From a plasmid: a stretch of 64,000 nucleotides of DNA. Positions 1 to 51,133 of this stretch are shown here, in pieces. The stretch lies in the sequence record NZ_CP020429.2; one strand, 5' to 3'. Both the position numbers and the translations under genes were made by a program. The notes beneath the pieces were generated by a model. It was not told where the DNA came from. It saw nothing but the letters and a program-made list of their open reading frames with translations, and searched no databases. How positions within the stretch are numbered: the stretch's first letter is position 1; every line of letters starts with the position of its first letter.

Positions 1-88
1 TGAGAAAGAGGAGTATTTGAACTTAGTTCAAAAATTAGAAGAGTTTGATTCCTCTCTTGCCACCAAGTATCGTCAATTGATCGACTAG
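1..88 (+). CDS. 3' end of an unidentified CDS (...EKEEYLNLVQKLEEFDSSLATKYRQLID*), truncated by the window edge
   Basis: Open frame from the window start to TAG at 86-88. No family recognised. Confidence 0.4.
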   Translation, partial: EKEEYLNLVQKLEEFDSSLATKYRQLID

Positions 89-101
89 AAAGGAGAAAGT
101 C

Positions 102-402
102 ATGAATGATTTACTCCTTATTCCGGTAATTTTTTTTAGCAGTAGGAGGAATTCTCATTCTTTTATGGAGAATCTTACTCATTGCCAGTGGACTTTTCCT
201 GATTGGTTTTGTCAGTTTTCTTATTTTCGTGGAGGGTTATGGAATTTATCTGTTCTTTACTGAATCAAACCTATACATAGAAGATCTATCCCAGAATGGT
301 CTGAACAGTTTTACAGGATTTTATGCGATATTTAATCTATCTTTGCTTGTATGTGGTGTTTTGAAAATCATTAGTTGGACAAGAAGATTAAAAAGTAGCT
401 GA
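102..402 (+). pseudogene. small membrane protein gene frameshifted at a T8 homopolymer
   Basis: ATG at 102 (MNDLLLIPVIFF). After the T run at ~125-132 the +1 frame continues as a hydrophobic protein (LAVGGILILLWRILLIASGLFLIGFVSFLIFVEGYG...KSS*) to TGA at 400-402. Total length 301 nt is not a multiple of 3. Confidence 0.5.
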
Positions 403-428
403 GAAAGAGATTGTTCAGCTACTTTTTA
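394..428 (+). terminator. rho-independent terminator
   Basis: agtagctga...tcagctact hairpin followed by TTTTT. Confidence 0.6.
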
Positions 429-556
429 ATTGGGCACTATAAAAATTTTTCTCGAAAATAAGAAACTTGCACGATTTACTCATTACTTAGCCAATACTAG
501 AGTTTATACTAGTTACTGTAAAGATGATCATCTAAAAGAAGGAAGGAGGCAACCTT

Positions 557-727
557 ATGGCTAAAAATACAAGTCGTCCAGAGATTGATTCTCTAAGTTT
601 CGAGGTTGAAAACCAAGAACTTTCCGGGAAATCAGGAGCTGGTTGGTTTACAGCTGTTCAACTTACATTGGCGGGACGTTGGTTCACCTGTTCCTATGAG
701 TGTACGACAAATAATGTTCATTGTTAG
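557..727 (+). CDS. 56-aa Cys/Trp-rich small peptide (MAKNTSRPEIDSLSFEVENQELSGKSGAGWFTAVQLTLAGRWFTCSYECTTNNVHC), candidate precursor peptide
   Basis: Strong RBS (AAGGAAGGAGG) 7 nt upstream of ATG. Paralog of the following ORF. Hydrophilic leader-like N-terminus, C-terminal half rich in Thr/Ser/Cys/Trp. Confidence 0.6.
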   Translation: MAKNTSRPEIDSLSFEVENQELSGKSGAGWFTAVQLTLAGRWFTCSYECTTNNVHC

Positions 728-783
728 ATAAAACAAAAGGAAAATTCTAGTGTTTTATTACAAAACATTGACAAGATTTTGAG

Positions 784-990
784 TTGGTGTTATATTTACG
801 GGGAGAAATACAAATAAAACAAGACAACTTTGAGATTGATTCTTTGGATTATGAAATTAATAGCCAAGAGTTGAATGGTAAACCTGATGCTGGGTGGGAT
901 ACGGCTGTTAGATTAACAGCACAGGTGCGCTGTGGGTGGTGGTTTACATATTCTTATGAATGTATTTCGCCAAACGTGTGCTGTGGATAA
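784..990 (+). CDS. paralogous Cys/Trp-rich small peptide (...FEIDSLDYEINSQELNGKPDAGWDTAVRLTAQVRCGWWFTYSYECISPNVCCG). Start codon uncertain.
   Basis: Aligns along the whole core with the 557..727 peptide. No in-frame ATG: the aligned start position holds ATA (814). TTG at 784 and GTG at 787 are alternatives. Confidence 0.45.
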   Translation: MVLYLRGEIQIKQDNFEIDSLDYEINSQELNGKPDAGWDTAVRLTAQVRCGWWFTYSYECISPNVCCG

Positions 991-1019
991 AACTCTCTAT
1001 TTTTTGATAGGAGGATAAA

Positions 1020-1127
1020 ATGGAAGGAATTATTGGAACACTAGACTTCTATGCACCAGTACTGGTCTTAGGAGTTGTTGTCATAGGGATTGTTTACTTT
1101 ATGAAAAAAAGAAACGATCGCAAATAA
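1020..1127 (+). CDS. 35-aa small membrane peptide (MEGIIGTLDFYAPVLVLGVVVIGIVYFMKKRNDRK)
   Basis: RBS AGGAGG 8 nt upstream. Single TM helix plus basic tail, followed by a terminator. Confidence 0.45.
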   Translation: MEGIIGTLDFYAPVLVLGVVVIGIVYFMKKRNDRK

Positions 1128-1137
1128 TCAACATTGA

Positions 1138-1167
1138 CCGATACCTAAAAAGTATCGGCTTTTTTTA
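1138..1167 (+). terminator. rho-independent terminator
   Basis: ccgatac...gtatcgg stem followed by TTTTTTT. Confidence 0.6.
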
Positions 1168-1254
1168 TAGTATAAATATATTGCACAAAATACTCATGGC
1201 AAACCTTGAAAGAAACCGTATAATGAGAGTGTAAAAAAGAAACGGAGGAATGAA

Positions 1255-1992
1255 ATGATGAAACAGCTTATTGTGACAGGATTAACGAAAACATTTGGTC
1301 AAGGGGATAATATCGTTCATGCTTTATTAGATGTGAACTTGTCCGTTGAAAAAGGTGAATTTCTGGCAATTATGGGGGCTAGTGGTAGTGGAAAAACAAC
1401 ACTTCTCAACTGTATTTCAACGATTGATAAACCAACATCAGGTGAGATTCGATTTGAAGATTTTGACATCATCCATGCCAAGGAAAATGAACTAGCTGAC
1501 TATCGTGCTAAAAACATTTCCTATATTTTCCAAGCTTACAACTTGGTGGAAACCTTGACAGTTTATGAAAATATTGTTCTACCTCTTCAAATTCAGGGGA
1601 AAACTATCAAAAAACATCAGGATAAGATTGAGGAAATTTTGGATAAGTTGGCCATCCAAAACTTAAAAGATAAGTTTCCTAATCAGTTATCAGGTGGTCA
1701 GCGGCAACGCGTGGCAACTGCTAGAGCCTTGATTGATGATTCTAAACTGATTATCGCAGATGAGCCGACAGGAGCCTTGGACTCTGCCAATTCTGAAAAA
1801 CTGATGGTACTTTTGCAGGAAATCAATAAAAGTTTTGGTATTACCATTTTACTGGTTACGCATGACCCTGCCGCAGCCAAGTACTCTTCACGGATGGTGC
1901 TACTTAGCGATGGAAAGATTATGGATGATTTGGAACGTAACAGCTTATCTAATGAACAGTATTTGCAAGAGATTTACAGCCGTACCAGATAG
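1255..1992 (+). CDS. ABC transporter ATP-binding protein (BceA/MacB-like, peptide efflux type)
   Basis: Walker A GASGSGKTT, signature LSGGQRQR, Walker B IIADEPTGALD. Paired with an FtsX-type permease. Confidence 0.9.
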   Translation: MMKQLIVTGLTKTFGQGDNIVHALLDVNLSVEKGEFLAIMGASGSGKTTLLNCISTIDKPTSGEIRFEDFDIIHAKENELADYRAKNISYIFQAYNLVETLTVYENIVLPLQIQGKTIKKHQDKIEEILDKLAIQNLKDKFPNQLSGGQRQRVATARALIDDSKLIIADEPTGALDSANSEKLMVLLQEINKSFGITILLVTHDPAAAKYSSRMVLLSDGKIMDDLERNSLSNEQYLQEIYSRTR

Positions 1993-2004
1993 GAGGAGGA
2001 GAGT

Positions 2005-4020
2005 ATGTATCCAAAATTGATTTTACGAAATGTATTTCGAAATTTACAGACCTATACCATCTATTTTTTCAGTCTGACCTTGATTTATAGCTTGCTCTAC
2101 GCTTTTAATGCTTTACCAAGCCATCCAGTGATGCAAAGTTTATCAGGAGCAAAGGAAATGTTAACGACGGTGATGAGCCAGTACATGGGCTTGCTTTCCT
2201 ATCTGATTCTATCGGCGATTGCCTTTCTCGTCGTTTATTCCACAAACTTTGTCCTGGGACGGCGCAAGAAAGAGCTAGGACTTTATGCAACGCTGGGAAT
2301 GAAGAAGAAGCAGATTATCCGTACCCTGTTCTTTGAAACCATGCTGGTCAATATCTTTTCCTTGATTCTAGGTTTCTTGCTTGGAGTGATCTTACTGGTC
2401 ATTCTAGCTAAGATTGCATCTGAGTTTTTTATGGCCAATTACTTTGGTAGTCTGCTTTTCTTTGATAGCAAGTCTGTCATCTTACTAGTTTATTCCTATT
2501 TGGTAACCAGTTTTATTGTTGGTGTCATGGACATTCTTACCTTTAGAAAGCAAAATATCATTGCACTCATTCAAGAAAATGGGGTCAAGAAATCTGTCTT
2601 GGCAAAAGGCAAGCCTGTTCTTCAAGCACTTCTCTTTATTCTTTCGACAGCTGTTATCGGTTTTGGTGCTCTCTATTTTTCAGACTATCACCATCTATCA
2701 CTCTTGAAAAGCTGGGGTATCTTGCTGGTATCTGTCTTCGTGATTTTTGTGATTTTATTTTACAATACCTTGAGCCATTTTATCTTGGTTTCCCTTAGAA
2801 AACTACCTCAAACCTACTATAACAAACTAAACAGTTTTAAAATTCGTCAATTTTCAAAACAAGCTGATAGTAATTCGGTCACGTTGGCTGTCTTATCCTT
2901 GACCTTGACACTGGCTCTCAGCTTACTAGTTTTTAGTGGTAGTGCCTATACGACTATGAACCGAGAGCTGAACAAATACTCACCTTATGACGTATCTGTC
3001 AATCTTTATCGTGGTCAAGAGTTCCAGTTTTCTCAGGAATCTGTCAAAGACAGATTGAAAGAAGATGGATTTGACTTTAACCTCTTCAAAGAGGAGTACA
3101 GCTATCCTATCTATTCTAGTGATTTAACCTATAAAGATTTGATTGATACTAGCAATCTCTGGGCGCATGATAAGGAACTTCCTAAATCAAAAGTACCGAT
3201 TTTAGGAATTTCTGCCTACAATCATCTCCGCAAACTGCAAGGTGAAAGAGAGGTTGACTTGGCAGATAACCAATTTCTGGTCAATGCTAACTATAAAGGA
3301 ACTGCCAAGCAGATTCAGGACTTTCTATTAACGAGAAAAACCCTCATGATTAACGGTTATTCTCTTAATCTTGCGTCTTCAAAGCCACTTGAAACAGTTT
3401 ACTTTTTATCGTCAGTGGGTACAAATGACACAGGAACCTTAATTGTACCAGATAAGGTAGTAGTTGGATTGATGGAAGACCACACGACCTATGTTGCCAA
3501 TTTCAAAGAAAATATCGACAAACGGAAAGTAGAAACATTCTTAAGTCAGTGGATAGAAAAATACTACTTCACTCGTGATGGAGCAGAGTTGAATCCGTTC
3601 ACCTATCAAACGAAAGGAAGAATTTTTGAGATTTATCTTGGATTTATGGGCGTCATCGTCTTTGTCATGATTTTTGTCAGTGTTATTTTTATCATTATTT
3701 CCCTCAGTATCTTGTCACTTCAAACTTCTACAAGTTCTTTGGATAGTGTCAATGATTATCAAATCTTATACCTTCTTGGGAATAAGAGAAATCAAAATCG
3801 CTCTATTCTTTTGCAACAGATTCTAAGTTATTTCTTGGTTCCGCTGGTTATCGCTGGTCCGCTAGCACTTGCCTTGAGTACAGCTCTTTTGGGCTATTTT
3901 GAGAATTTCGCTAATACCAGCATTTCTATTGATATCACCTATCTGGGAGTAGCGGTTTTACTCTTTGTCCTTTACCTGCTAGTGACTTACAGAGTAAGTT
4001 GGCAAATTATTGAAAATTAA
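2005..4020 (+). CDS. FtsX-family ABC permease with 10 TM helices and a large extracellular loop (BceB-like)
   Basis: 671 aa with two FtsX-like TM bundles. RBS GGAGGAGGAG. Confidence 0.85.
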   Translation: MYPKLILRNVFRNLQTYTIYFFSLTLIYSLLYAFNALPSHPVMQSLSGAKEMLTTVMSQYMGLLSYLILSAIAFLVVYSTNFVLGRRKKELGLYATLGMKKKQIIRTLFFETMLVNIFSLILGFLLGVILLVILAKIASEFFMANYFGSLLFFDSKSVILLVYSYLVTSFIVGVMDILTFRKQNIIALIQENGVKKSVLAKGKPVLQALLFILSTAVIGFGALYFSDYHHLSLLKSWGILLVSVFVIFVILFYNTLSHFILVSLRKLPQTYYNKLNSFKIRQFSKQADSNSVTLAVLSLTLTLALSLLVFSGSAYTTMNRELNKYSPYDVSVNLYRGQEFQFSQESVKDRLKEDGFDFNLFKEEYSYPIYSSDLTYKDLIDTSNLWAHDKELPKSKVPILGISAYNHLRKLQGEREVDLADNQFLVNANYKGTAKQIQDFLLTRKTLMINGYSLNLASSKPLETVYFLSSVGTNDTGTLIVPDKVVVGLMEDHTTYVANFKENIDKRKVETFLSQWIEKYYFTRDGAELNPFTYQTKGRIFEIYLGFMGVIVFVMIFVSVIFIIISLSILSLQTSTSSLDSVNDYQILYLLGNKRNQNRSILLQQILSYFLVPLVIAGPLALALSTALLGYFENFANTSISIDITYLGVAVLLFVLYLLVTYRVSWQIIEN

Positions 4021-4100
4021 GTCAAATACCAGAGTTGCCTATCCGACAATTCTGGTATTGTGTTACAATGATATTAAAGTAGTTCAGGAAGTGGATACTT

Positions 4101-5675
4101 ATGAAACAGTTTGTCAAATTGATCTCGAAAAACTCACTTTTATTGTGGTGGTTGACGATTTTTAATCATCTAACTTTGATGATTTATATTTATTATAGGA
4201 TTCCTCTGGACTTTTCGACAGATTTTTCCTTACAGATGGTTTTATTGCTGATTATTGCTTTAATTGTATTTAGCTATATTTGTAATATTGTGACCTTTCG
4301 GTATAGTGAGTTGAAACTTTGGTTGCTCCTGATGATGTTTCTCATTAGCTGGCAATCCATATTTAATCAAGGAGTTGCGAGCACCCTGTTGCACTTTTTT
4401 GATATTCTTCATCCGCTCAACTCTTTTTTATTGGTGTATAGTTCTCTGTCTATTATCTTTCTGGGAGAGAAAATAGGAGAAGAACTGTTGAGTGTGTCCT
4501 TTGTGTTGACACTAATCACCATTAGTTCGTATCTGTTAAGTCCTTCAATTTTTCTATTTCTGTCCTTGTTTGCGTCTTTCTTTTTAAACCTTGTTCCCTT
4601 GATTTTACTGATTTTATATCATAAAGAGTTGAAAAGCAAACTCAAGTATCAGAGACGAAATTTGTGGATATTAGCTTTGATATTGCCTCTTTCTTATTTC
4701 TTTTTGTATATCAATACGACGGGCTCAGGAGTGATGAACCTAGTCTGGTATCTAGAAATTCTTGGTATCTTAGCTTTTGTACACTTCAAAACGATTGTCA
4801 GCTCTCTTCAAAAAAAGGTATCAGAGTTGAAATTGTCCTATATAAAAGCTTTTTCACACTTGTTTTTACTAGTTATATTTTTGTTAGTAGGTATTTTCAT
4901 CATCTTTCGTCTAGACTTAAACACGAGCTTTTTAGTCTTGAATATCATGTTACTATTGTTCGGGATTTGTTCGGAAGAATTGATTCGCCTCTTTCGTTCT
5001 GCTGAAATGCTAGATGCTAGGGATTATGTAAAAGTTCTCTTTTTAAAGCGTAATCGTATGGTGAAAAGTCTGCTGGCAAATGAAGACACAGAACAACAGT
5101 TCTCCGAATTTCTTCACAATGAAATCCTGCAAAATGTGATGGCGATAAAAAATTTCAATCAATATAGTAGCAATCAAGCTTTTGGTGAACAGATCAATCT
5201 GGTGACAGAGGAGTTGGTTCAGCGGATTCGTGAGCGGATGGATTATTATCAGCCAATGGTAGAAACAGACGAGCAGTTAGACATCCAGTATCAAGGGCTG
5301 ATTAATCGGATTGTCAAGCGCTATCACGCAGAAAATGAAGTCGTCACACAGTTTCCTGACCACTTTAGGCTTTTATCTCCTTACGATAAAATTGCCTATC
5401 GTCTGGTTGAGGAGTTGGCGACCAATGCCGTTAAGTACGCTAGTGGTGGAACGATTTCTTTGAAGATTGATGTGAATAATGACGCTATTTTTATCATTTC
5501 TGAAAATGACTGCCTTCAAACAGAAAAATCCTTAGGTTATGGCTTGAAAAATATGTCTAATAAAATTAGTGTTTTAGGTGGTCAGATGCAGATTTTTGAA
5601 AATAATAAGAGATTTCGTGTAGAAATTTCTCTCCCGATTGATAAGGAGTTGTGTTATGAAAATTTTGTTAATTGA
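4101..5675 (+). CDS. multi-TM sensor histidine kinase (HisKA_3/NarL-partner type)
   Basis: About 8 N-terminal TM helices and a C-terminal HATPase (ELATNAVKYASGG, GYGLKN). Confidence 0.8.
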   Translation: MKQFVKLISKNSLLLWWLTIFNHLTLMIYIYYRIPLDFSTDFSLQMVLLLIIALIVFSYICNIVTFRYSELKLWLLLMMFLISWQSIFNQGVASTLLHFFDILHPLNSFLLVYSSLSIIFLGEKIGEELLSVSFVLTLITISSYLLSPSIFLFLSLFASFFLNLVPLILLILYHKELKSKLKYQRRNLWILALILPLSYFFLYINTTGSGVMNLVWYLEILGILAFVHFKTIVSSLQKKVSELKLSYIKAFSHLFLLVIFLLVGIFIIFRLDLNTSFLVLNIMLLLFGICSEELIRLFRSAEMLDARDYVKVLFLKRNRMVKSLLANEDTEQQFSEFLHNEILQNVMAIKNFNQYSSNQAFGEQINLVTEELVQRIRERMDYYQPMVETDEQLDIQYQGLINRIVKRYHAENEVVTQFPDHFRLLSPYDKIAYRLVEELATNAVKYASGGTISLKIDVNNDAIFIISENDCLQTEKSLGYGLKNMSNKISVLGGQMQIFENNKRFRVEISLPIDKELCYENFVN

Positions 5676-6252
5676 TGATCATAAATTATTTAGCCAAAGT
5701 ATCAAGATGATTTTAGAGTTATCGGAAAACATTAAAAAGGTCCAGTTAGTGGATAATTTTTCGACTATTTTGGAGATTGCTTTTAATGACTACGACATTA
5801 TTTTGATTGACATCAACCTGACGAGTCTGTATCAAGATGATGGGCTGACCTTGGCACAAGAGATTATCGATAATGGTTGTTCTAGTAAGGTTGTAATTTT
5901 GACGGGATACAGCAAAAAGATGTATGAACACCGAGCTAAAGCTATGGGGGCTTATGGCTTTCTGGATAAAAGCATGAACCCAGATGAGTTGGTGAAAAAA
6001 CTGGAAAAGATTTATCTAGGTGGTAAGGTCTTTTCAGATGAAGTGATGGTAGAGGTGCTAACACCACGAGAAATCGAGATACTAGAATTGGTTAGAAATG
6101 GCTTGACCATTGATGATGTCTGTGACAAGGTCGATGTGAGTAAACGTACAGTTTCCAATCACTTGGCCAATATCTTTTCAAAATTTGGAGTGACTAACAG
6201 GCAGGAGGCGATTCATATCGCTGAGCAGTTGGGCTATTTTCCACCAGATTAA
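5638..6252 (+). CDS. NarL/LuxR-family response regulator
   Basis: Receiver domain (ILLIDDH, D in ILIDIN) and C-terminal LuxR HTH (LTPREIEILELV...SNHLANIFSKFGV). Confidence 0.85.
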   Translation: MIRSCVMKILLIDDHKLFSQSIKMILELSENIKKVQLVDNFSTILEIAFNDYDIILIDINLTSLYQDDGLTLAQEIIDNGCSSKVVILTGYSKKMYEHRAKAMGAYGFLDKSMNPDELVKKLEKIYLGGKVFSDEVMVEVLTPREIEILELVRNGLTIDDVCDKVDVSKRTVSNHLANIFSKFGVTNRQEAIHIAEQLGYFPPD

Positions 6253-6530
6253 AAAGTTGCAGAAGATGCAGCTTTTTTAATTTATTTACAAAAATTGCAC
6301 ATATTACTCATTCTAATAAACGGTAAATTTGATAATCTATTAGTAATTAAGGAGGAAATCATTATGTCTATGGTATCTGAAAAATGGTTTGTATAAGAAA
6401 CTTTATCAGACGGATTACTAATTTTGTAAGTTATATTGGCCACCTTCGGGTGGCATTTTTACTTCTGTGATACTTTTTTCAAGATTTATCTGCTATTCTT
6501 GACCTAGTTTTTATAGAAAGAAGGTCTAAG

Positions 6531-7172
6531 ATGTTAAATAAAGTCAAAACTAAAGCCTTAATTAGTGTTGGAGCAGTAGGCGCAACTAACTTTATTCTCA
6601 TGATGGGATATACTGCTGGTCAACATTCTACTGCCAAACAAAGTCGAAAAGAAATCGAATTGGCTGTAGCTAAACTTGTAGAGGACAAACAAGCAGAAGA
6701 TAAAGCAAGTGTTTTATCATCAGATACTGTAAAAGAATTTTTGACACAGTACTATACGAAAGAAAAACTAGGGGAAAATAATACACGTATTCAACCTTAT
6801 ATGACTGAATCGGCTTATTCTCAAGAATTGACAAGTCAAAACGATGCCATGAACCAAGTGTATAAGGACTATATTTTGGATTATCATTTTGAAAAAGCTG
6901 ATATCTTTGTCAATCAGACTACGAATCAAGCTATTGCCATGGTGTCTTATAATGTAACCTATGTATCTGATTTAAAGAATGCCAACCAATCAAAGACAAA
7001 CCAAACATAAACCCGAACGGTTAAATTGTCCTATTCTAAACTACCTGGTAAGTTATTGGTCAATCAAGTACAGGTTTGGAAATCTGGGTTAGATGAACTA
7101 GATAAGGCAACTTCTAAAACTTTAGAAGAATCCTCATCTGTTCCATCATTGCCGAATACTACGACAAAATGA
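6531..7172 (+). pseudogene. secreted/anchored hypothetical protein interrupted by an in-frame TAA at 7008-7010
   Basis: The ORF 6531..7010 continues in the same frame for 53 more codons to TGA at 7170-7172. N-terminal signal/TM MLNKVKTKALISVGAVGATNFILMMG. Confidence 0.5.
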
Positions 7173-7288
7173 TGATATTTTATGAATATAGAGGAATGTA
7201 AGCAAATTTCAATTTTTGATGTAGCCAATCGATTAGGTATCTCCTTTAAACAAGTTTCTAGCAGTGTCTATGAACATCCTGAACATGT

Positions 7289-7330
7289 TGAGTGTGTAGC
7301 TTTGCTTGTGCGAGCTAATTCATCAGTGAA
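7289..7330. repeat. BOX-like intergenic repeat, copy 1 (gagtgtgtagctttgcttgtgcgagct...)
   Basis: About 35 bp nearly identical to 9394-9450. A weaker third copy lies at ~7407-7432. Resembles the pneumococcal BOX element C box from memory. Confidence 0.5.
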
Positions 7331-7598
7331 GTAGATGTTCGGCAAATGCTATAGCTTTCGTAGACTGAGGATATTACGACGAAATAATACGGTAATTCCG
7401 AACCGCTGAGTGTGTAAGATTGCTTATAAAAGCGTAAAAACCTTGTAATGAATCAATAATGAAAAGCCTTGATTGCAAGGCTTTTTTGCGTTTTTGTGAT
7501 AGAATACAGTTAGTTATAAATAGAGAGCCAATAAGAATCAGTAAAAATATTATTTATTAAATAATCAAGCTAGCGTAGACGAACTGGATAGGTTACTA

Positions 7599-8519
7599 GT
7601 GAAAACTGCAAGATGTGATGTGAAAAGAATCGGAGAGTGCTTGATGGATTTTAGTAGTAAGATAGCCATAAATAAAGGCTGGTCAGATGATAAAAAATAT
7701 TGTGTGACAGATCAAAATCAGCAAAACTATTTCTTGCGTATTTCTGAGAAGAAAAAATTGGGTTCTAAGAAATTTGAATTTGATATGATGAAGAAAGTAG
7801 CTTATCTTGGAGTTCCGATGTGTAAACCAATTAGCATTGAACTCTGCGATGACGAAGTACATTCTTTACACGAATGGATAGACGGGAAAGATGCAAGAGA
7901 AACCATTTTAACTGTTTCGAAAGAACAACAATACACTTACGGAGTAGAAGCAGGAAATATACTTCGAAAAATTCATTCACTTCCTGTTACAGAAGTTCGT
8001 GAAAATTGGGAACCCTTTTATAATCGAAAAATTGATGACAAAATCAAAAAATACAAAGAATGTCCCGTTCAATACGAAAATGGTCAGATTTTTATTGATT
8101 ATTTAAATGCAAATCGAGAATGGTTAAAAGATAGACCTCAGGTTTTCCAACATGGGGATTATCATATCGGAAATTTCATGATTGGAAAAGATGGTAAAAT
8201 TTATGTCATTGACTTTGATCGATTTGATCTTGGAGATCCTTGGGAGGAGTTCAATCGTATTGTATGGTCTGCTCAAGTTTCTCCCTCTTTTGCGTCTGGT
8301 ATGATAGATGGATATTTTGATCATAAGGTTCCGGATTTATTTTGGAAGCTTCTCGCTATCTATATTCTAAATAACATAGTTGGTGCACTGCCATGGGCTG
8401 TACCATACGGAGCTGAAGAAATATCAGTAATGCAACATCAAGCTAAGGAAATTTTAGAATGGTATGATGATATGAAGCAAATCATTCCTAGTTGGTATTT
8501 GATTGAGAAAAAGGCTTAA
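7599..8519 (+). CDS. aminoglycoside/macrolide phosphotransferase (APH)-family kinase. The likely true start is M at 7644.
   Basis: Catalytic HGDYHIGNFM and IDFDRFDLGDPWEEF motifs of the APH/choline-kinase fold. Confidence 0.8.
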   Translation: MKTARCDVKRIGECLMDFSSKIAINKGWSDDKKYCVTDQNQQNYFLRISEKKKLGSKKFEFDMMKKVAYLGVPMCKPISIELCDDEVHSLHEWIDGKDARETILTVSKEQQYTYGVEAGNILRKIHSLPVTEVRENWEPFYNRKIDDKIKKYKECPVQYENGQIFIDYLNANREWLKDRPQVFQHGDYHIGNFMIGKDGKIYVIDFDRFDLGDPWEEFNRIVWSAQVSPSFASGMIDGYFDHKVPDLFWKLLAIYILNNIVGALPWAVPYGAEEISVMQHQAKEILEWYDDMKQIIPSWYLIEKKA

Positions 8520-8637
8520 TAATAAAAGAGTTTAAATATCAATTTGAAAAAATGTCAAGATTATTTGCTCATATTATAACGAATTCAATTCTTTATTAAT
8601 ACCTATCGAGAATTATCTTGAAACTTGGAATGTTGTT

Positions 8638-9270
8638 TTGGAGTCAAGTTACATGAAAGAATATATTTTAAATTTAGAAAAAGAATTCTCTTTAATAGAT
8701 AATGGATTTAAAGAAGAAGAGAAAAGAGCTCTTGCTGATTATCTATCAAACGATAATGTGTATACCAAAGAATTAGCATTTTTAGCTTTTAAATCCAATG
8801 TATATCAAGTTAGAATGTACAGTGTATTTCTCTTTGGCCATTTGTCATCGTATGAAGAAATTTTGATCTTTATGAGGGATGAGGTTTCAAAGGATGACAA
8901 TTGGAGAGTTCAAGAAGTATTAGCAAAAGCATTTGATGAATTTTGTAAGCAAACAGGTTATGAAAAATCTCTTCCGGTTATTGACGACTGGCTACAAAAT
9001 AATAATCCAAATGTCAGAAGAGCTGTTACAGAAGGTTTGAGAATATGGACGAGTAGACCATATTTCAAGGATAATCCAGATGAAGCTATTAAACGAATCG
9101 CAACATTAAAAGAAGATTCTAGTGAATATGTTAGAAAATCAGTTGGTAATGCTTTGAGGGATATTAGCAAAAAATTTCCAGACTTGATTAAAGAAGAACT
9201 TGATAGTTGGGACGTTAAGAGTAAAGAGATTCAAAAAGTTTACAAGTTAGCAAGTAAATTTATTAAGTGA
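8638..9270 (+). CDS. HEAT-repeat protein, DNA alkylation repair (AlkD/AlkC-like) family
   Basis: About 210 aa. Repeated VR(R/K)AV/SVGNALRDI helix motifs typical of this family. Assignment made from memory. Confidence 0.5.
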   Translation: MESSYMKEYILNLEKEFSLIDNGFKEEEKRALADYLSNDNVYTKELAFLAFKSNVYQVRMYSVFLFGHLSSYEEILIFMRDEVSKDDNWRVQEVLAKAFDEFCKQTGYEKSLPVIDDWLQNNNPNVRRAVTEGLRIWTSRPYFKDNPDEAIKRIATLKEDSSEYVRKSVGNALRDISKKFPDLIKEELDSWDVKSKEIQKVYKLASKFIK

Positions 9271-9393
9271 CAATTATCAGCTACAAAGTTGGAAAAATGG
9301 TAACTATAAAATATTTTCAATCTAAAGTTTAATTTTAAACAACAACTCTATCCCTTTCGTTCTATAATATAGATGTTGACTAACTCCATACGT

Positions 9394-9450
9394 GGAGTGT
9401 GTAGCTTTGCTTGTACGAGCTGATTAAACAAGGATGTAGCTAGTGAGAGT
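9394..9450. repeat. BOX-like intergenic repeat, copy 2
   Basis: ggagtgtgtagctttgcttgtacgagctgattaaacaaggatgtagc; matches 7289-7330. Confidence 0.5.
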
Positions 9451-9471
9451 CTTAAAGTAAGGAGTCTAAAC

Positions 9472-10245
9472 ATGAAATTCCATGAATTTGGTGATAAGAA
9501 TTTGCCTCCTATCTTACTGATACATGGTGGTCGCAGTTCCTGGTGGAATTATCTTCGTCAAGCAAAAATCTTGTCAGAAGAATACCGTGTTATTTTACCT
9601 ACTTTGAATGGACACGGAGAAGAATATCATCTCGATTATGTTTCTACGGAAGATTCTGCTTTAGAGATCCTAGACTGTATCGAAGCAAACTGTGGCGGGA
9701 AGTTGTTTGCGATTGGTGGTGTTTCACTTGGTGGTCAAATTGCCATGGAGCTTTTGTCTTTAGACAGTGAAATTGCTGAGAAGGCCATCATAGACGGAAG
9801 CCTCTGTATTCCTCAACCAAGGTTAGCCAAAATCAGCATCTTTCTAGTGTCTCTATTTGGTAAACTGATGTTCAATAAATTCTCTTGCAAACTTCAGTTA
9901 AGCATGATGAACAAATTCTATCCTAAACTGGCTTATCCAGAGGAACTAAAAGCTTATTATTTGGATGATCTGCCAAGGACGCCTGTCAAAACATTAGTGA
10001 CTATTTACAAAACCTATATGGGGCGTTACAAACTGAAGGATACGATTTCTGCTAGCAAAGCTCAGGTTTTATATATCTATGGTGAAAAAGAATTAAACTG
10101 TGTGAAAGCATCGGCGAAATTATTTCAGTAGCTACATCCAAATACGATTTTGTATGAAGCAAAGGGCTATCATCACGGCTATTTATCAGCTTACCTGCCT
10201 CAAGAGTGGGTTGATTTGGTTGAGCCTTTTTTAAAGAAGAAATAA
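9472..10245 (+). pseudogene. alpha/beta hydrolase interrupted by an in-frame amber TAG at 10129-10131
   Basis: GVSLGGQIA nucleophile elbow. The frame continues after TAG through a catalytic-His-like region (GYHHGY) to TAA at 10243-10245, just before the next gene's RBS. Confidence 0.6.
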
Positions 10246-10257
10246 GGAAAAATAAAG

Positions 10258-10698
10258 ATGAATAGAATAGTAGACGATCAGATAACGCTTATTCCTTATT
10301 ATAGAAATGATGACATCTCCCTTCTTTGGTATCAAGATAGTGAGGTTTGCAAACAAGTAGATAATACTGATCAGATTTATAATCTAGCAAAACTTCATAA
10401 AATGTATGATTACCTAACTTCACATGGTTCTTGCTATTATATCCAATATGAAGGAGTGTTAGTTGGAGATGTGACACTCCAAGATAACTCGGAACTTTCT
10501 ATAGTTATCAGCAAAGAGTATCAGAATTTACAGATCGGAAGACGATGTGTTTCTGAAATGATACAGCTGGCGAAAGAACAAAAAATGGTAAAGGTCTCTG
10601 CACAAATATATCCTTTTAATACTCAAAGTCAAAGAATGTTTTTGGCTTTGGGATTTCAGAAAGTAGATGAAGAGTGGTATGAATATAAGTTGATATAG
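10258..10698 (+). CDS. GNAT-family N-acetyltransferase
   Basis: 146 aa. QIGRRCVSEMIQLAKE acetyl-CoA binding motif. Confidence 0.65.
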   Translation: MNRIVDDQITLIPYYRNDDISLLWYQDSEVCKQVDNTDQIYNLAKLHKMYDYLTSHGSCYYIQYEGVLVGDVTLQDNSELSIVISKEYQNLQIGRRCVSEMIQLAKEQKMVKVSAQIYPFNTQSQRMFLALGFQKVDEEWYEYKLI

Positions 10699-10929
10699 AA
10701 CAGTTGTATATTTCCATACATATTAAGAATATAATCTGCTGTTTATAAAATAATGTTCATGAAAAAAGAGATAAAAGGTACCTACTGATCCATGGACAAG
10801 AGTTTTGTTCAGAAATCTAAAAATGAAGAGAACACCAACAGATGATTTTTTGTTGGTGTTCTCTTTATGTGATTACTTTTTGGTATCTTTTACGAATAGA
10901 TATATTGTATAAAATAGGAGGTATATAAT

Positions 10930-11175
10930 ATGATGACTTATGATGAAGTAATGGAAGCGATAGAAAGAGGGTTTATCAAGGGAGATAAAATCAGTATTAT
11001 TCGGCGAAATGGCAAGATCCATGATTATGTTTTACCAGGAGAGAAAGTAGAACCTGGAGAAATAGTGGAAGAAGAGAACTTAGATATTGTCCTTGAAGAG
11101 TTGAAGGGGTCCGGCAACCGAAGGGCGCTAGCCTTCAAACTTTCCTCCCAAAATGTGTCCAAAATATTGACATAA
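10930..11175 (+). CDS. small conserved hypothetical protein (copy 1, 81 aa). Its C-terminal extension runs into the 40-bp repeat.
   Basis: Paralog of 17940..18125, with an identical ~60-bp upstream region including RBS AGGAGG. Confidence 0.6.
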   Translation: MMTYDEVMEAIERGFIKGDKISIIRRNGKIHDYVLPGEKVEPGEIVEEENLDIVLEELKGSGNRRALAFKLSSQNVSKILT

Positions 11176-11343: not shown

Positions 11344-11515
11344 GGGGAGAATCCCCAAACCCCTATAAAATAAAAATTTTATCAAATAAACTATTTTACT
11401 ATTTACTACACTTAAAATAACAGAATAATACAAATGAAATTTAGTCTTAATAATTTAAGGTATCCTATAACCATCAACAGTGATGTTGAAATAATTCAAA
11501 GGAGGAAGCTATTCA

Positions 11516-12381
11516 TGAGTACAATACTACGAGCGTGTAATTTAAGTAAATCGTTTGGTTCACAAGAGGTGTTAACTAATATCAATTTTGACATCCAATC
11601 AGGAGATATAGTTGGCTTGATTGGAAAAAATGGATGTGGGAAGACTACTCTAATGAAGATGATATTGGGTCTCACATCACGAACTGAAGGTGATATTCAA
11701 TTTGAAGGTGATTCGAATTATCATACTAAAAGAAAGGCTTTAAATAAAATTGGTTTCCTCTTAGATTGTAGGTTGTTTGAAGATTTCTCTGCATATGATA
11801 ATTTGAAATTATTCTCTATGTATTCTTCAACAGTTAATGAAGAAAATCTAGATGACCGAATTGATAGGTTGTTAAAATTTGTTGGTTTAGATAACAGTAA
11901 AAAACTAGTAAAATCTTATTCGTTTGGTATGAAGCAGAGATTGGGTTTGGCGCTGGCATTATTAGATGATCCTGAATTCTTGATTTTAGATGAACCATTT
12001 GTTGGTTTGGATCCCTCGGGGGTTAGAGTCCTTCTTGATTATATTGTAAAGTTACGTCAAGAAAAGGGTGTTACAATTTTAATCTCATCACATCAGTTAC
12101 ATGAAATTGAAGAAATTTGTGACTATTTTTTATTTATAAATGATAAGAGAGTTGAAACACATTCTAAACTAGGAGAAAATCAAATAGTTATTACTTTAGG
12201 GAATGTGGTGCCAGAGTTGGAACATAGTTTAAGAGATATGGTTGATATGAAAGAAAATCAGATAACTTTACCAGAAGATATGTCACTACTGAACTCAACA
12301 TTAAAGCTTATTTACAGATATAACGGTGAAATAAATGATATCACAATAAATGATTCTATAGAAGAATTATTTAGGGGGTGA
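11516..12381 (+). CDS. ABC transporter ATP-binding protein (ABC-2 type). Start taken at MSTILRACNLSKSF.
   Basis: Walker A GKNGCGKTT, signature FGMKQR, Walker B LILDEP. RBS AAGGAGGAAG. Confidence 0.85.
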
Positions 12382-12385
12382 CAAA

Positions 12386-13138
12386 ATGAACTCAATCATT
12401 TTAGCAGAACTATATAAATTACTGAAACGAAAAAATTTTATTGTATTAGCGGTACTATCTTTGTGGTCATTGATTTACGGATTGGGTGCTTTTTTGCATT
12501 GGGATTTTGTAAAGATTGGTGCTAAGTTAGATTTGGTTACCTTTATTACAACGATGTGGACGTTTTTATTGATATTAACTATTCCATTATTATTAATCTT
12601 ATACACCTCTTCCTTTATCTTAGGAGGAGAAATCCAAGGAGGGCAAATTTTACTAGAAGTAAATCGAGTGTCTAGTAAGAAAACGTTAATTATTTCTAAA
12701 TATATTGTTGTCATTTTATCAATTTTATTTTTATATGTACTGAACTGTTTATCATCACTAATCACATATATTTGTTTTTTATCTCGAAGTGAGTTTGGCT
12801 ATGTGAATTTTTGGAAGTTGCATCCTACAAATATGCAATCAATAATAATTAGTTTAGTAAATTTAGGTTTCATTATTTTATTGGCTAGTGTAGCTTTTTA
12901 CTTATCATTATATGTTTCGGCAATAGTAGCTGCATTTGCAAGTTTAGGTGTTTACTTTTTATGTCAATTATTGTCATATGTTACTATTATTTCTAAATTT
13001 GTTCCAGGATATTTTTTTGTTGTATCTAATTATCGTTTTTCGTTTGGATTATCTATGGTCCATTTGCTAAGCTATCTTTTCATCTGTATGCTATTATTGA
13101 TGGCTACCATGAAAGGATTTGAAAAAAAAGCACTGTGA
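12386..13138 (+). CDS. ABC-2 family permease with 6 TM helices
   Basis: 250-aa hydrophobic protein, translationally coupled to the ATPase. Confidence 0.75.
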   Translation: MNSIILAELYKLLKRKNFIVLAVLSLWSLIYGLGAFLHWDFVKIGAKLDLVTFITTMWTFLLILTIPLLLILYTSSFILGGEIQGGQILLEVNRVSSKKTLIISKYIVVILSILFLYVLNCLSSLITYICFLSRSEFGYVNFWKLHPTNMQSIIISLVNLGFIILLASVAFYLSLYVSAIVAAFASLGVYFLCQLLSYVTIISKFVPGYFFVVSNYRFSFGLSMVHLLSYLFICMLLLMATMKGFEKKAL

Positions 13139-13175
13139 GTGATATAATACTCCAAAAAGGAATTTATGGAAGCGG

Positions 13176-13904
13176 ATGTATAGAATAGCAATTTGTGATG
13201 ATGATAGTCTACACGTTAGTAATTTAGAAAATCACATTTCGAGATATTTTGATGAGCTTAACATTCAATATGAGATTGACGGTTACTATAAAGGAGACCG
13301 TCTAGTGAAATCAATGAGAGAACAGATGGATAACTATCAATTGATATTTTTAGATATTGAAATGGAGGGTCTCAATGGTATTGAAACTGCAAAATTATTG
13401 AGGAGTTTGGACAAAAGTTTCATCCTAGTCTATGTTACAAGTTATGAGCAATATGCTTTAGAGAGTTTTGAAGTATCACCATTTCGATATTTAATAAAAC
13501 CAGTATCTATTGAGAAACTGAGAGCTGTTCTTAAGGATGTTCTTGTGGAGTTAACTGCAAAACAGAAATTTCTGTTTTATCAAGTAGGTATGGAGCATTT
13601 TCAGGTAAACTTGGATAATATCGTGTGCTTGTACTCGGAATTTGGTAGAAAAATTCATCTTGAATTGGTTGATGGTCGTAATGTGTCGTTTTATGGGAAA
13701 ATATCGTCAATTGAAGAAGGTCTGCCCCAAACCCATTTTGTCAGAGTCAATAGTGGCACTATGATTAACCTGAATTATGTTACATCACTTAATCGAAGTG
13801 ATGTAACGATGATAAACGGTGATTGTATTACCATTAGTAGAAGTCGTAAGAAAATAGTAATATCAGCTTACAGTCAGTTTATTGAGAGGAGTTTTGGGTT
13901 ATGA
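13176..13904 (+). CDS. LytTR-family response regulator (AgrA/ComE/BlpR-like)
   Basis: Receiver domain (IAICDDD...FLDIEM) and C-terminal LytTR DNA-binding domain ([15 protein letters not shown]). Confidence 0.85.
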
Positions 13905-15154
13905 TTAACTTATTTAATTCAATTGGACTCCTCTCTCTTTTTTTATTTCAAAGCTTTATTATTTGGATTTATTTACAGCATTTTTTTGTCATTAAAATTT
14001 CTAAAAATAAATTCTATTGTTTTATTTTAGGTGTTTATTTCATTGGTAGAACGTCTATAACAGTTAATCACGATACCATTATTGATTTTAAATTTTTTTC
14101 TTTGTTTTTCACATTCTTGATATTGTTCTTTTTTTTATCAGGGGATGTAATGAAAAAAATATTTCATTACTTATTCTTGATTTTTTGGTTCCTGATTCAA
14201 GAAGATATTACAATTTTATTGTTGAATCATGCGCAACAGACGAGAGCGATTGTTATTTTTGTCGTTCAATTTTTATTGATGCTATTAACGCTTTTATTTA
14301 TACTTGGATTAAAGCATTTTAAGATAGATAATTTATTAGGTTTGAATAAAATAGAGTACGCTATTTTATCAGTCACTCCTCTGTTGTCCATCATTCTATT
14401 GATATATAAAGTTTCACCACCTATAGATAAAGTTCTTATATTTGATAGCTATTTATTATTAATAAATATTGTTATAATTGTACTTTATAATTACTTGAGC
14501 GAAAAAAATTATAACCTTATCAAAAACAAAATAGTCTTTGACGAAAATAGTATGACTTGTGAAATTATAAAACAGGAAGAAGAATTGGCAACTCTTAGAC
14601 ATGATTTAAAAAATATAGTTTCCTCAATAGATTTTTACGCAGATAGTAGTGATTATAACAATATCAAGGTGATAACTAGAGAGATATTGGGACAAGAAGT
14701 ATTTAATCGTAAAATCACAGGATGTATACCTATTGATGCAGTGCTAAATCAAAAAATATCTAAGATGAAAAAAGATGGTATTCCATATAGCTTAGATTTA
14801 CAAGTTCCATATAATTTAGATCTAAGTGCTATTGCTATTGATTCGTGTGCTATTCTGGGTAATATTCTTGATAATGCTATAGAGGAAATTGAACGTAATA
14901 ACTTAGATGATCCAATTGAAATAGCTTTGCGTTTTAAGAATAACAAATTAGTTTTTAAAGTTGCCAATCCAATCAAAGATTCTAATGTAGATGTTAATTA
15001 CGATGGAATGAAGTCGATAAAATCTCCTAACCGGCAAGGTATAGGGATAAAAAGTAGTTATGATCGGGCTATGAAATTGAAGGGACATTTAAATATTACT
15101 GTTCAGTCAAATCGATTTATTGTATTGGTTGTGATTCCGCTAAGGATGAACTGA
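13901..15154 (+). CDS. AgrC/ComD-like (HPK10) membrane histidine kinase
   Basis: 6-7 N-terminal TM helices, H-box LRHDLKN, C-terminal GHKL ATPase. Overlaps the regulator's stop codon. Confidence 0.8.
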
Positions 15155-43778: not shown

Positions 43779-43916
43779 ATATAATTTAAAGCATTTGGAC
43801 AGAAATTGTAAGAAATTTTCTGTCCAAATGCTTTTTTTCTGAACAGATTCTGAACTTAAGATGAAATAATAACATCGTAAATATATCGGACATATAAATA
43901 AGAGAGGAAATATAAG

Positions 43917-44021
43917 ATGAAAAATACAATCAAAGATTTCGACCTAGATTTAAAGACAACTAAAAATAACTCTGATGAATCACTTGGTCATGCAGAAAAC
44001 TGTAAAGCTAACATTAGCTGA
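43917..44021 (+). pseudogene. lanA: remnant of a class I lantibiotic precursor gene (streptin-like leader MKNTIKDFDLDLKTTKNNSDES with no plausible core)
   Basis: The FDLDL box and the first 20 residues closely match the streptin SrtA leader (MNNTIKDFDLDLKTNKK, from memory). The C-terminus (LGHAENCKANIS) is not core-like and overlaps the lanT start out of frame. Confidence 0.5.
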
Positions 44022-46699: not shown

Positions 46700-46717
46700 T
46701 TAAGAGAGGAGAACAAG

Positions 46718-49678: not shown

Positions 49679-49689
49679 GAGTAATCAAT

Positions 49690-51131: not shown

Positions 51132-51133
51132 TC

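Follow-up and report, generated by a model that had tools for sequence, protein, structure and literature searches.

A probable non-producing remnant of a salivaricin 10-type lantibiotic cluster, with predicted inducible immunity, on a streptococcal plasmid

The published srn operon for salivaricin 10 is carried by pSALI-10 (CP090008; PMC10235938), the megaplasmid of Streptococcus salivarius SALI-10, and is homologous to the pneumolancidin (pld) cluster of Streptococcus pneumoniae. On pSALI-10 and pSAL813 the annotation lists four slmA genes, an ABC ATPase, a permease, a kinase, a regulator, lanM and a peptidase-domain ABC transporter, and the full cluster runs srnA1-A4, a 35-aa ORF, srnXY, srnKR, srnM and srnT. 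In S. pneumoniae P174, lacZ fusions revealed that the pldA1, pldFE and pldM promoters are peptide-inducible and that the kinase gene is not, while mutation of the first T in the TATA box of the pldFE promoter gave a hyperinducible phenotype (PMC4742701). Only the modified, secreted peptide induces the locus, and immunity requires pldK and pldFE rather than the peptides; indeed, pldM and pldT deletion mutants stay immune (PMC4742701). S. mitis B6 and other S. mitis carry a pldFEKR-only region preceded by two fragments resembling pldA1-3 and pldA4, and a non-producing locus with signal-inducible immunity was reported for S. mitis in 2016-2017 (PMC4742701, PMC5729180). BceAB-like transporter pairs, also discussed in PMC4742701, are induced by an adjoining two-component system.

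We analyzed 64,000 nt of plasmid DNA (NZ_CP020429.2; hereafter the window), within which an initial annotation had described two tandem precursor-like peptides, a transporter and a two-component system as a layout typical of producer-immunity loci. Each of its features was found at or near the position it gave, and the two small genes are indeed RiPP (more exactly, lantibiotic) precursor genes, with a BceAB-like immunity transporter as neighbor and, next to it, an unusual kinase with many TM segments and a NarL-type regulator. The locus is not, however, a producer-immunity locus, because the synthetase and exporter genes, srnM and srnT, have been deleted downstream of the regulator and only a remnant is left. 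Taken together, sequence comparison and analogy with pld make it very probable that the region is left over from a class II multi-peptide lantibiotic cluster, srn/slm/pld, and no longer produces; inducible immunity is predicted for it. Window positions 423-6389 share 98-98.5% nucleotide identity with pSAL813 and pSALI-10, five genes are intact (the 35-aa ORF, ATPase, permease, kinase and regulator), and the genes kept are only those published as needed for immunity. The system itself has already been described; our small additions are the nucleotide-level deletion mechanisms, a common promoter box and the overlooked 35-aa ORF. The genes and flanks are as follows.

1-88, plus strand: 3′ end of a DUF5962-family gene, flank outside the cluster (the L010 counterpart has PF19387)
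102-402, plus strand: frameshifted small membrane-protein gene, flank (ORFs 102-263 and 229-402)
557-727, plus strand: peptide 1, chimeric srnA1::srnA3 precursor gene by DNA alignment (56 aa; NF040663, 95.2 bits)
814-990, plus strand: peptide 2, srnA4/pldA4 ortholog by alignment with srnA4 (NF040663, 104.1 bits)
1020-1127, plus strand: p35, intact single-TM ORF (35 aa; RBS GGAGGATAAAATG)
1255-1992, plus strand: ABC ATPase, SrnX/PldF (245 aa; PF00005, 2.7e-36)
2005-4020, plus strand: BceB-like FtsX permease, SrnY/PldE (671 aa; PF02687, two FtsX stretches)
4101-5675, plus strand: multi-TM histidine kinase, SrnK/PldK (524 aa; sub-threshold HATPase_c)
5656-6252, plus strand: NarL/GerE-type response regulator, SrnR/PldR (PF00072, PF00196)

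In the flank, the two overlapping ORFs correspond to one intact 106-aa ORF in the S. oralis locus L048 (5283-5603), and window positions 1-10727 are 100% identical to positions 9445-20171 of L010. The gene cut at position 88 is a DUF5962 gene and not a transporter, given the PF19387 domain of its counterpart.

The two peptides had been left outside any named family. Both in fact score above the curated cut-off of 60 bits for NF040663, 'salivaricin M family lantibiotic', in an NCBIfam search, and their common architecture is not a chance likeness; the family is already named, as salivaricin M/E/10 and pneumolancidin, with slmA, srnA and pldA as gene names. Recognition comes from NCBIfam only, as Pfam gave no match for peptide 1, peptide 2 or the 35-aa ORF. 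In alignment both have the leader EID[ST]L-x-[FY]E[VI]-x-x-QEL and a GS/GA/AA double-glycine-type site before the mature G or W, as well as the mersacidin-type T-x-S-x-E-C (FTCSYEC in peptide 1, FTYSYEC in peptide 2), a lipid II-binding motif in ring B whose role is set out in the salivaricin 10 paper (PMC10235938). The same paper gives the mature N-terminus as GWFTAVQL; cleavage therefore occurs after SGA, one residue before the AG-Trp junction proposed initially.

Peptide 1 had been regarded as the good copy. Its ATG is indeed preceded by a near-perfect RBS, GGAAGGAGG, but alignments reveal a chimera without a family-invariant Cys: the 5′ ~140 nt of the gene match srnA1, the 3′ ~45 nt are identical to srnA3, and srnA2 is absent from the window. 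Moreover, the DNA alignment shows that a slippage deletion has taken out the 9 bp GGACGTTGT that separate two GGACGTTG repeats, and this in-frame loss removes Cys-Gly-Arg, including the first core Cys, where CG is kept in all eight of the other aligned family members. Of the three conserved core Cys of the family (rings A, B and C, the first in R/H/S-C-G), peptide 2 keeps all and peptide 1 does not; the missing one would belong to ring A. The second copy had been suspected of decay, with ATA exactly where the first has ATG, and both points were borne out by alignment with pSAL813 and L048. The codon at 814-816 is ATA where srnA4 of either has ATG, and the only in-frame TTG or GTG starts fall upstream of the RBS, as opposed to the ATG and strong RBS of peptide 1. 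By our own count from the alignment there are 13 nt differences from srnA4 of pSAL813/L048 in 177 nt, two of them synonymous, so that the changes are mostly non-synonymous, as compared with a whole-locus divergence of ~2%. Peptide 2 is thus likely a pseudogene.

The fate of the synthetase and exporter genes can be read from a short segment beyond the regulator.

6364-6396, plus strand: 10-codon stub MSMVSEKWFV, defined by three-way alignment with the 5′ end of lanM and the 3′ end of lanT in L048
6439-6454, plus strand: terminator originally 3′ of srnT, in DNA homologous to what follows lanT

The stub consists of the first 8 codons of srnM fused to the out-of-frame 3′ end of srnT, of which only the last ~50 nt remain. 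In blastn, window positions 581-6389 correspond to L048 6467-12289 and positions 6368-7285 to L048 17301-18218, placing the junction within a 12-bp microhomology, TGAAAAATGGTT, at 6378-6389; the breakpoints were mapped against both L048 and L103, and the same break is seen against pSAL813. These alignments indicate that a single 5-kb deletion across the microhomology took out both srnM and srnT. Consistently, tblastn with SrnM found no SrnM ortholog in the 64-kb window (the sole match, at 22%, is a class I LanC), nor does the window contain an ortholog of SrnT, the LanT with an N-terminal C39 peptidase domain, so that both the LanM (DUF4135 plus LANC_like) and the LanT of a functional class II lanthipeptide cluster are missing. 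The original statement that the window holds no C39 transporter or modification enzyme stands for the cognate synthetase and the C39 transporter, and fails for modification enzymes at large, as a LanC (45446-46699) and a LanB (46718-49678) of an unrelated class I cluster are present. Two ORFs were tried as the missing LanM and rejected: 36973-40104 encodes a YSIRK/SH3_5 surface protein, and 46718-49678 is the class I LanB.

It had also been suggested that modification genes might lie upstream, and on that reading the region would be a new locus for making, and withstanding, a RiPP or bacteriocin, with the modification enzymes and exporter encoded just upstream of the window. The gene order does resemble such a locus, and the window begins only 556 bp before peptide 1. 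Yet across more than 20 identical or near-identical contigs the upstream DNA never contained a LanM, radical-SAM, YcaO or C39 protein, and instead encoded DUF5962, an ABC exporter together with an Rgg-type regulator, paratox, or what is left of an unrelated lantibiotic-immunity locus. This refutes the upstream-enzyme reading; in this lineage the deleted genes sat downstream of the regulator, where the scar lies, and the family already has a name. We give a novel producer-immunity locus next to no credence.

A second alternative is that peptide 1 still functions as a secreted signal or weak bacteriocin, through another C39 transporter of the host or a LanM acting in trans. The same 56 residues recur unchanged in 625 blocks of the collection, on hundreds of contigs, and the gene combines an intact ORF and near-perfect RBS with a complete leader, a GA-G cleavage site and an inducible promoter box; the family-invariant first core Cys, however, is lost, and at none of the 21 loci with this chimeric peptide 1-type allele was SrnM or SrnT found within 10 kb. 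The octapeptide GWFTAVQL is preserved as well, and when phosphorylated it is the immunomodulatory tail of salivaricin 10, yet the same paper attributes phosphorylation of Thr4 to SrnM, which the window lacks (PMC10235938). The pldM and pldT mutants of P174 neither inhibit nor signal (PMC4742701), meaning that an unmodified or non-cognately exported peptide is inactive in that strain. In sister orphan loci, furthermore, almost all species (among the best 80 of 129 loci) carry a frameshift in this gene, and this speaks against the peptide being under selection. We consider a working peptide 1 quite unlikely. The significance of the locus is chiefly one of correct annotation: NCBI and genome miners label this peptide 'salivaricin M family lantibiotic', and one source 'salivaricin M precursor', although the stretches examined contain neither a cognate synthetase nor a cognate exporter. 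A further idea, that the 56-aa peptide is the true salivaricin M from a producer locus on a chromosome, was rejected, as a 603-kb S. salivarius contig in which the peptide differs by one residue is also laid out as an orphan locus.

The transporter and signaling genes are, by comparison, well preserved. Pfam matches and a crude hydropathy scan agree with their initial description as a BceAB-like pair, a multi-TM kinase and a NarL-type regulator. The ATPase gene is 98% identical to that of pSAL813 at the DNA level, and the permease has a hydrophilic stretch of ~235 aa between residues 310 and 547 and is intact in 74 of 76 scorable loci (among the best 80 of 129). The first ~290 residues of the kinase are hydrophobic with multiple TM segments; sub-threshold HATPase_c is its only Pfam match, and weak NCBIfam matches, to UhpB and to LiaS, suggest the HisKA_3 type. 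Among other orphan loci, dN/dS values of 0.07 for the ATPase, 0.17 for the permease, 0.19 for the kinase and 0.15 for the regulator indicate purifying selection on all four large genes. Such a module could be kept mainly as general BceAB-type resistance (to bacitracin or nisin-like compounds) rather than as specific salivaricin 10-type immunity, a possibility raised in PMC4742701 to explain the locus in non-producing strains and echoed by the BceAB-like architecture and by one source that names the ATPase 'bacitracin export ATP-binding protein bceA'. Induction in P174 was, however, demonstrated with cognate modified peptides (PMC4742701), and the multi-TM N-terminus of the kinase and the GerE domain of the regulator differ from a BceS-type two-TM sensor with an OmpR-type regulator. 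We regard general resistance as the main role as improbable; SrnXY may be specific for salivaricin 10-type lantibiotics. General resistance of this kind is, in itself, compatible with the immunity-remnant explanation.

The regulatory elements of the cluster are as follows.

467-483, plus strand: box TTGCACGATTTACTCAT, exact match to TTGCACNNNNTACTCAT, presumed SrnR/PldR operator of the peptide-inducible promoter P_A
768-796, plus strand: near-consensus sigma-70 promoter (TTGACA, 17 nt, TG-TATATT; 11/12 hexamer matches)
1138-1158, plus strand: intrinsic terminator after the 35-aa ORF, stem-loop CCGATACCTAAAAAGTATCGG then a T run
1181-1197, plus strand: box TTGCACAAAATACTCAT, overlapping the promoter of the immunity transporter operon
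1196-1224, plus strand: transporter operon promoter (ATGGCA, 17 nt, TATAAT)
6251-6277, plus strand: terminator 3′ of the regulator gene
6295-6311, plus strand: box TTGCACATATTACTCAT, surviving promoter P_M of the deleted synthetase gene, identical to the L048 stretch upstream of lanM

Exact matches to TTGCACNNNNTACTCAT number three in the 64 kb, one each at P_A (whose -10 hexamer TATACT lies at 505-510, upstream of the precursor genes), the transporter operon promoter and P_M, and the search found no exact box before the kinase gene. The three boxes therefore fall exactly at the promoters equivalent to the peptide-inducible ones of P174, and the 17-bp box recurs at the counterparts of these three promoters in L048, L103, the divergent L002 cluster and pSAL813. 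By analogy, SrnR presumably binds it. The promoter at 768-796 lies upstream of srnA4 and the 35-aa ORF. If the immunity-remnant reading is correct, a modified lantibiotic from neighboring producer streptococci would be sensed by SrnK, possibly together with SrnXY; activated SrnR would then bind TTGCAC-N4-TACTCAT upstream of the transporter operon, and also at the now-useless precursor and synthetase promoters; SrnXY would be induced and the cell protected, and the two peptide genes would be relics with no active product. Judging from the pld deletion phenotypes of S. pneumoniae P174 (PMC4742701), the window locus would in this way confer inducible immunity.

To place the locus among its relatives we surveyed the best 80 of 129 loci by kinase alignment, with one species representative each, all at 95% identity or above; kinase identities in this set are 95-97% (aa). 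The synteny of the peptides with the transporter does recur across Streptococcus, mostly in the form of orphan loci. Only 4 of the best 80 of 129 loci contain srnM/T with four intact precursors; the remaining scorable ones lack srnM/T, with at least three different deletion end-points, and their peptide genes are almost all frameshifted, while p35, srnX, srnY, srnK and srnR keep their full length in nearly every one. Most mitis-group remnants in this set end just past the regulator terminator (L048 12183). Among the species representatives examined from the best 80 of 129 loci, immunity-only clusters outnumber complete ones by ~18:1, a ratio that counts each species once and is not a strain frequency. 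The 95-97% identity across S. mitis, S. oralis, S. pneumoniae, S. pseudopneumoniae, S. infantis, S. parasanguinis, S. rubneri and S. salivarius may reflect horizontal transfer of the cassette p35-srnXY-srnKR. If so, resistance to the phosphorylated lantibiotics of probiotic S. salivarius may already be common in the oral microbiota. The excess of immunity-only loci bears on how well salivaricin 10-producing probiotics displace oral streptococci. The set also shows cleanly how bacteriocin production can be lost again and again while immunity stays ('cheater' genotypes).

The 35-aa membrane peptide initially noted after the precursors is indeed present, with a single TM segment. It lies in the interval between pldA4 and pldF that was termed 'intergenic' (PMC4742701), and it appears neither in that cluster description nor in the salivaricin 10 one (PMC10235938). 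Among the best 80 of 129 loci it is intact in all 77 that contain it, the promoter motif of 768-796 occurs exactly ~253 nt upstream of it in 72 of 74 and the box of 1181-1197 is exact in 70 of 74, although with orphan loci only 3-5% diverged this conservation may partly reflect recent spread. The terminator at 1138-1158 is likewise conserved in related loci, p35 of the divergent L002 cluster is 66% identical, and dN/dS for p35 among other orphan loci is 0.52. We tentatively suggest that p35 is perhaps an unrecognized third component of the immunity or sensing module, partnering the BceAB-like transporter or the multi-TM kinase. NCBIfam also matches p35 to a 'QVPTGV sortase B sorting domain' (22.1 bits, cut-off 21.35); this was discounted as a match of composition, because the TM segment and basic tail explain it and the QVPTGV motif is absent.

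VraH of Staphylococcus aureus is a small membrane protein that partners the BceAB-type transporter VraDE. Going by description, p35 may be analogous, both being tiny, with one TM segment, and encoded next to a transporter of the BceAB type. With BceAB-BceRS the window shares an ATPase and a ~650-aa FtsX permease with a big predicted extracellular loop, next to a two-component system, and differs in its kinase (~8 TM segments rather than 2) and its NarL/GerE-type rather than OmpR-type regulator. The closest producing relative is the salivaricin 10 cluster of pSALI-10 (CP090008) and of pSAL813 from LAB813 (PMC10235938, PMC6787328), which has the same order of precursors, 35-aa ORF, srnX, srnY, srnK and srnR, the same three promoter boxes and leader, and the same mature N-terminus. 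Unlike it, the window lacks srnM, srnT and srnA2, has srnA1 and srnA3 fused with loss of Cys-Gly-Arg, and has an srnA4 without a start codon; its left flank (1-422) resembles the mitis-group context of L048 and not pSAL813. In gene content the window matches the S. mitis B6-type pldFEKR remnants, with intact ATPase, permease, kinase and regulator and neither synthetase nor exporter, a type found here in at least 70 species representatives. It departs from those remnants in several respects: both of their peptide fragments are interrupted by stops, whereas here the first stays in frame and nothing but the start codon is missing from the second; unlike most mitis-group remnants, it still has both the promoter of the synthetase gene and the junction in the microhomology; and it resides in an S. 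salivarius-group strain, probably on a megaplasmid, rather than on an ICE or a mitis chromosome.

The two small genes that open the locus encode lantibiotic precursors of a family that is both named and experimentally characterised. The gene layout given in the initial annotation is present, the ORF list and the raw sequence being in agreement.

Features of the locus (positions along the strand as given)
557-727, peptide 1: 56-aa ORF with an ATG start and a strong RBS
814-990, peptide 2: ORF homologous to peptide 1
1020-1127, hydrophobic, single-TM 35-aa ORF
1255-1992, ABC ATPase, 245 aa
2005-4020, FtsX permease, 671 aa
4101-5675, kinase, 524 aa, N-terminal half hydrophobic
5656-6252, regulator with Response_reg and GerE domains

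In a profile search, peptides 1 and 2 scored 95.2 and 104.1 bits, respectively, against NCBIfam NF040663 ('salivaricin M family lantibiotic'; curated cut-off, 60 bits), and no Pfam model matches either. Their resemblance is not due to chance: they had been described as a related pair, and both indeed exceed the cut-off of a single model, which also supplies the named family to which the initial annotation could not assign them. On contigs encoding relatives of peptide 1 we found a complete class II lanthipeptide cluster that combines LanM (DUF4135 + LANC_like) and a C39-ABC LanT with three tandem precursors and the same 35-aa ORF, ATPase, FtsX permease, 524-aa kinase and GerE regulator. By megablast against plasmids, window 1-7300 matched the S. 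salivarius megaplasmids pSAL813 (CP040803) and pSALI-10 (CP090008) at 98.5%; the pSAL813 annotation lists four copies of slmA ('salivaricin M family lantibiotic'), an ABC ATPase, a permease, a kinase, a regulator, lanM and a peptidase-domain ABC transporter. The published srn operon on pSALI-10 (srnA1-4, srnXY, srnK, srnR, srnM and srnT) specifies salivaricin 10, a group of lantibiotics phosphorylated at Thr4 and having the mature N-terminus GWFTAVQL; the SrnA2 sequence is that of salivaricin E, and the srn genes have homologs in the pld (pneumolancidin) genes of S. pneumoniae P174 (PMC10235938), which are located on an ICE (PMC4742701). Therefore, through its links to salivaricin 10, salivaricin E and pld, the family left unnamed at first is well known.

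When aligned by blastn with the complete cluster of S. oralis subsp. dentisani (L048), the window resolves into three collinear blocks, and comparison with pSAL813 gave identical breaks.

Collinear blocks between the window and L048
Block 1: window 1-681, L048 5203-5882
Block 2: window 581-6389, L048 6467-12289
Block 3: window 6368-7285, L048 17301-18218

The first break falls within the precursor array. In the DNA alignment, the first ~140 nt of the peptide 1 gene match srnA1 and the remainder is identical with the srnA3 3' end; peptide 1 is an srnA1::srnA3 recombinant, with srnA2 lost. It is also without the 9 bp GGACGTTGT, which in srnA1 sit between two GGACGTTG repeats, a loss that takes out Cys-Gly-Arg and thereby a Cys kept in all of the other aligned family members (8/8). 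Salivaricin 10 is described with three rings, A to C, of which ring B contains the lipid II-binding motif (PMC10235938), and the first Cys, missing from peptide 1, would be the residue that closes ring A. Peptide 2 is the srnA4 ortholog and, as had been noticed from the sequence, carries ATA (814-816) at its start position; its orthologs in pSAL813 and L048 have ATG there. By our own count from the alignment it differs from srnA4 at 13 of 177 nt (2 of the 13 synonymous), against a locus average of ~2%.

At the second break, ~5 kb with lanM (srnM) and lanT (srnT) are gone. A three-way alignment places the deletion junction at a 12-bp microhomology, TGAAAAATGGTT, common to lanM codons 5-9 and the lanT 3' end, and a 10-codon ORF, MSMVSEKWFV (6364-6396), is left after the intact lanM promoter. 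The initial annotation had proposed looking for modification genes 10-15 kb upstream; no hidden modification enzyme was present in the left flanks of >20 contigs with an identical or near-identical locus, and SrnM lay within 10 kb in 0 of the 21 loci whose chimeric core is of the window type. The left flanks carry three kinds of content: DUF5962 with an Rgg-type regulator and an ABC exporter in front of it, paratox, or an unrelated lantibiotic-immunity remnant. In the left flanks of L012/L100 (2930-5630) and L099 (1-4556) the orphan locus, a copy without srnM and srnT, directly adjoins such a remnant, composed of an L_biotic_typeA precursor, LanFEG and an OmpR-type two-component system without a synthetase; immunity-only lantibiotic cassettes seem to gather next to each other. 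The left flank of the window itself (1-422) matches mitis-group contexts and not the S. salivarius producer plasmids, and at 102-402 a frameshift has split a membrane-protein gene into two overlapping ORFs; upstream of the complete S. oralis cluster the same gene is unbroken and encodes 106 aa (L048 5283-5603).

Using the kinase, we scanned one genome per species; 129 species representatives gave matches, and the survey covers the best 80 of the 129. Kinase amino acid identity was 95-97% in all of these 80, which include S. mitis, S. oralis, S. pneumoniae, S. pseudopneumoniae, S. infantis, S. parasanguinis, S. rubneri and S. thalassemiae. The S. parasanguinis and S. infantis loci share about 95-96% DNA identity with the window, which far exceeds core-genome similarity among these species, and therefore the cassette moves horizontally. 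Among the best 80 of 129, lanM and lanT are kept in only four (L042, L048, L052 and L090), each with four intact precursors; L041 has a lanM remnant of ~290 nt, and the remaining loci reaching the lanM/lanT region have neither gene. Since the orphan loci show at least three distinct downstream end-points, loss occurred several times.

Downstream end-points of orphan loci (L048 positions)
12183: the majority
12289/17301 microhomology junction: 14 species representatives and the window
12486: L041
12304: metagenome contigs L008 and L009

Frameshifts nearly always break up the precursor genes of orphan loci, leaving separate 'leader-only' and 'core-only' fragments. Essentially all loci have full-length versions of the 35-aa ORF, ATPase, permease, kinase and regulator (exceptions: two MAGs and one extended regulator), for which dN/dS in orphan loci is 0.52, 0.07, 0.17, 0.19 and 0.15, respectively.

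Other parts of the window share 98.8% identity with the S. salivarius megaplasmid pSsal-YU10, and the window is probably from an S. salivarius-group megaplasmid. Exact matches exist for ten of the proteins it encodes, most of them recorded for Streptococcus sp. FDAARGOS_192 (ARC21792-ARC21839). The surface protein encoded at 36973-40104 (1043 aa, with a YSIRK signal, 7 SH3_5 repeats and 3 GBS Bsp-like repeats) and the TraG/VirB4-family ATPase at 53674-55635 are both in keeping with a conjugative megaplasmid. Judged by the corresponding contigs L094-L096, the stretches at about 10930-11175 and 11434-15154 hold a gene of the paratox family, prophage-type inhibitors of ComR competence signalling; behind it are genes for an ABC ATPase, a protein of 250 aa, a response regulator of the LytTR type and a HATPase_c_5 kinase, together resembling a Blp/Agr-type peptide quorum-sensing module. 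A second, unrelated lantibiotic cluster, of class I (41714-51856), encodes an OmpR-type regulator, a kinase, a LanT-like ABC protein, LanC (45446-46699), LanB (46718-49678) and LanFEG, and shares 98.8% identity with the 'lantibiotic streptin' cluster on pSsal-YU10. In the precursor gene (43917-44021) the leader (MKNTIKDFDLDLKTTKNNSDE...) survives and the core peptide is lost (34 aa vs 47 aa in YU10; the segment is ~900 bp shorter than its YU10 match), so this second locus also has a decayed structural gene.

A 17-bp box, TTGCACNNNNTACTCAT, occurs exactly three times in the 64 kb, at 467, 1181 and 6295 (chance expectation for exact matches ~0.002, our own estimate), preceding the precursors, the transporter operon and the lanM stub, with a -10 hexamer ~21 nt after each; the kinase gene has none in front. 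L048 and pSAL813 carry the box at the same three promoters, as does, with 0-2 mismatches, the L002 cluster, a divergent one with 54-72% protein identity and a different gene order. These positions agree with reporter fusions in S. pneumoniae P174, where secreted peptide induces pldA1, pldFE and pldM and not pldK (PMC4742701), and we therefore infer that the box is likely the operator of the NarL-type regulator. A change of the first T to C in the TATA box upstream of pldF renders the locus hyperinducible (PMC4742701). A near-consensus promoter (TTGACA, 17 nt, TG-TATATT; 768-796) lies ahead of srnA4 and the 35-aa ORF and is unchanged in 72 of 74 loci despite decay of the intervening coding sequence. 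The 35-aa ORF is intact wherever a related locus contains one, with 66% identity in the divergent complete cluster. In the pneumolancidin paper the stretch that contains it counts as intergenic, and it is absent from the description of the salivaricin 10 operon; this conserved ORF is overlooked by both. The name that NCBI gives it, 'QVPTGV sortase B sorting domain', seems to be spurious.

In the pneumolancidin system, deletion of pldM or pldT abolishes inhibition and signalling and leaves immunity in place, deletion of pldK (kinase) or pldFE (transporter) abolishes immunity, and deletion of all four peptides does not affect it; the locus is induced only by modified, exported peptide (PMC4742701). 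Applied to the window, these genetics imply that this locus cannot provide the strain with the lantibiotic; the strain would still be expected to sense salivaricin 10-type peptides from neighbours, which would induce the BceAB-like transporter. The proposal of a producer-immunity locus is borne out for the lantibiotic precursors and not for production: the locus is a non-producing derivative that has decayed, and such loci had been reported before, pldFEKR-only regions behind two disrupted pldA-like fragments having been described in S. mitis (PMC4742701, PMC5729180). Our additions are minor, namely the mechanisms of deletion at nucleotide level, the box common to the promoters, the extent to which the immunity cassette has spread horizontally and the conserved 35-aa ORF. 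As initially described, the transporter is BceAB-like; it resembles BceAB in its ATPase, two FtsX stretches and large loop; unlike in canonical BceRS-BceAB, the adjacent kinase is multi-TM and the regulator NarL-type, and the module is therefore not a canonical member of that group.
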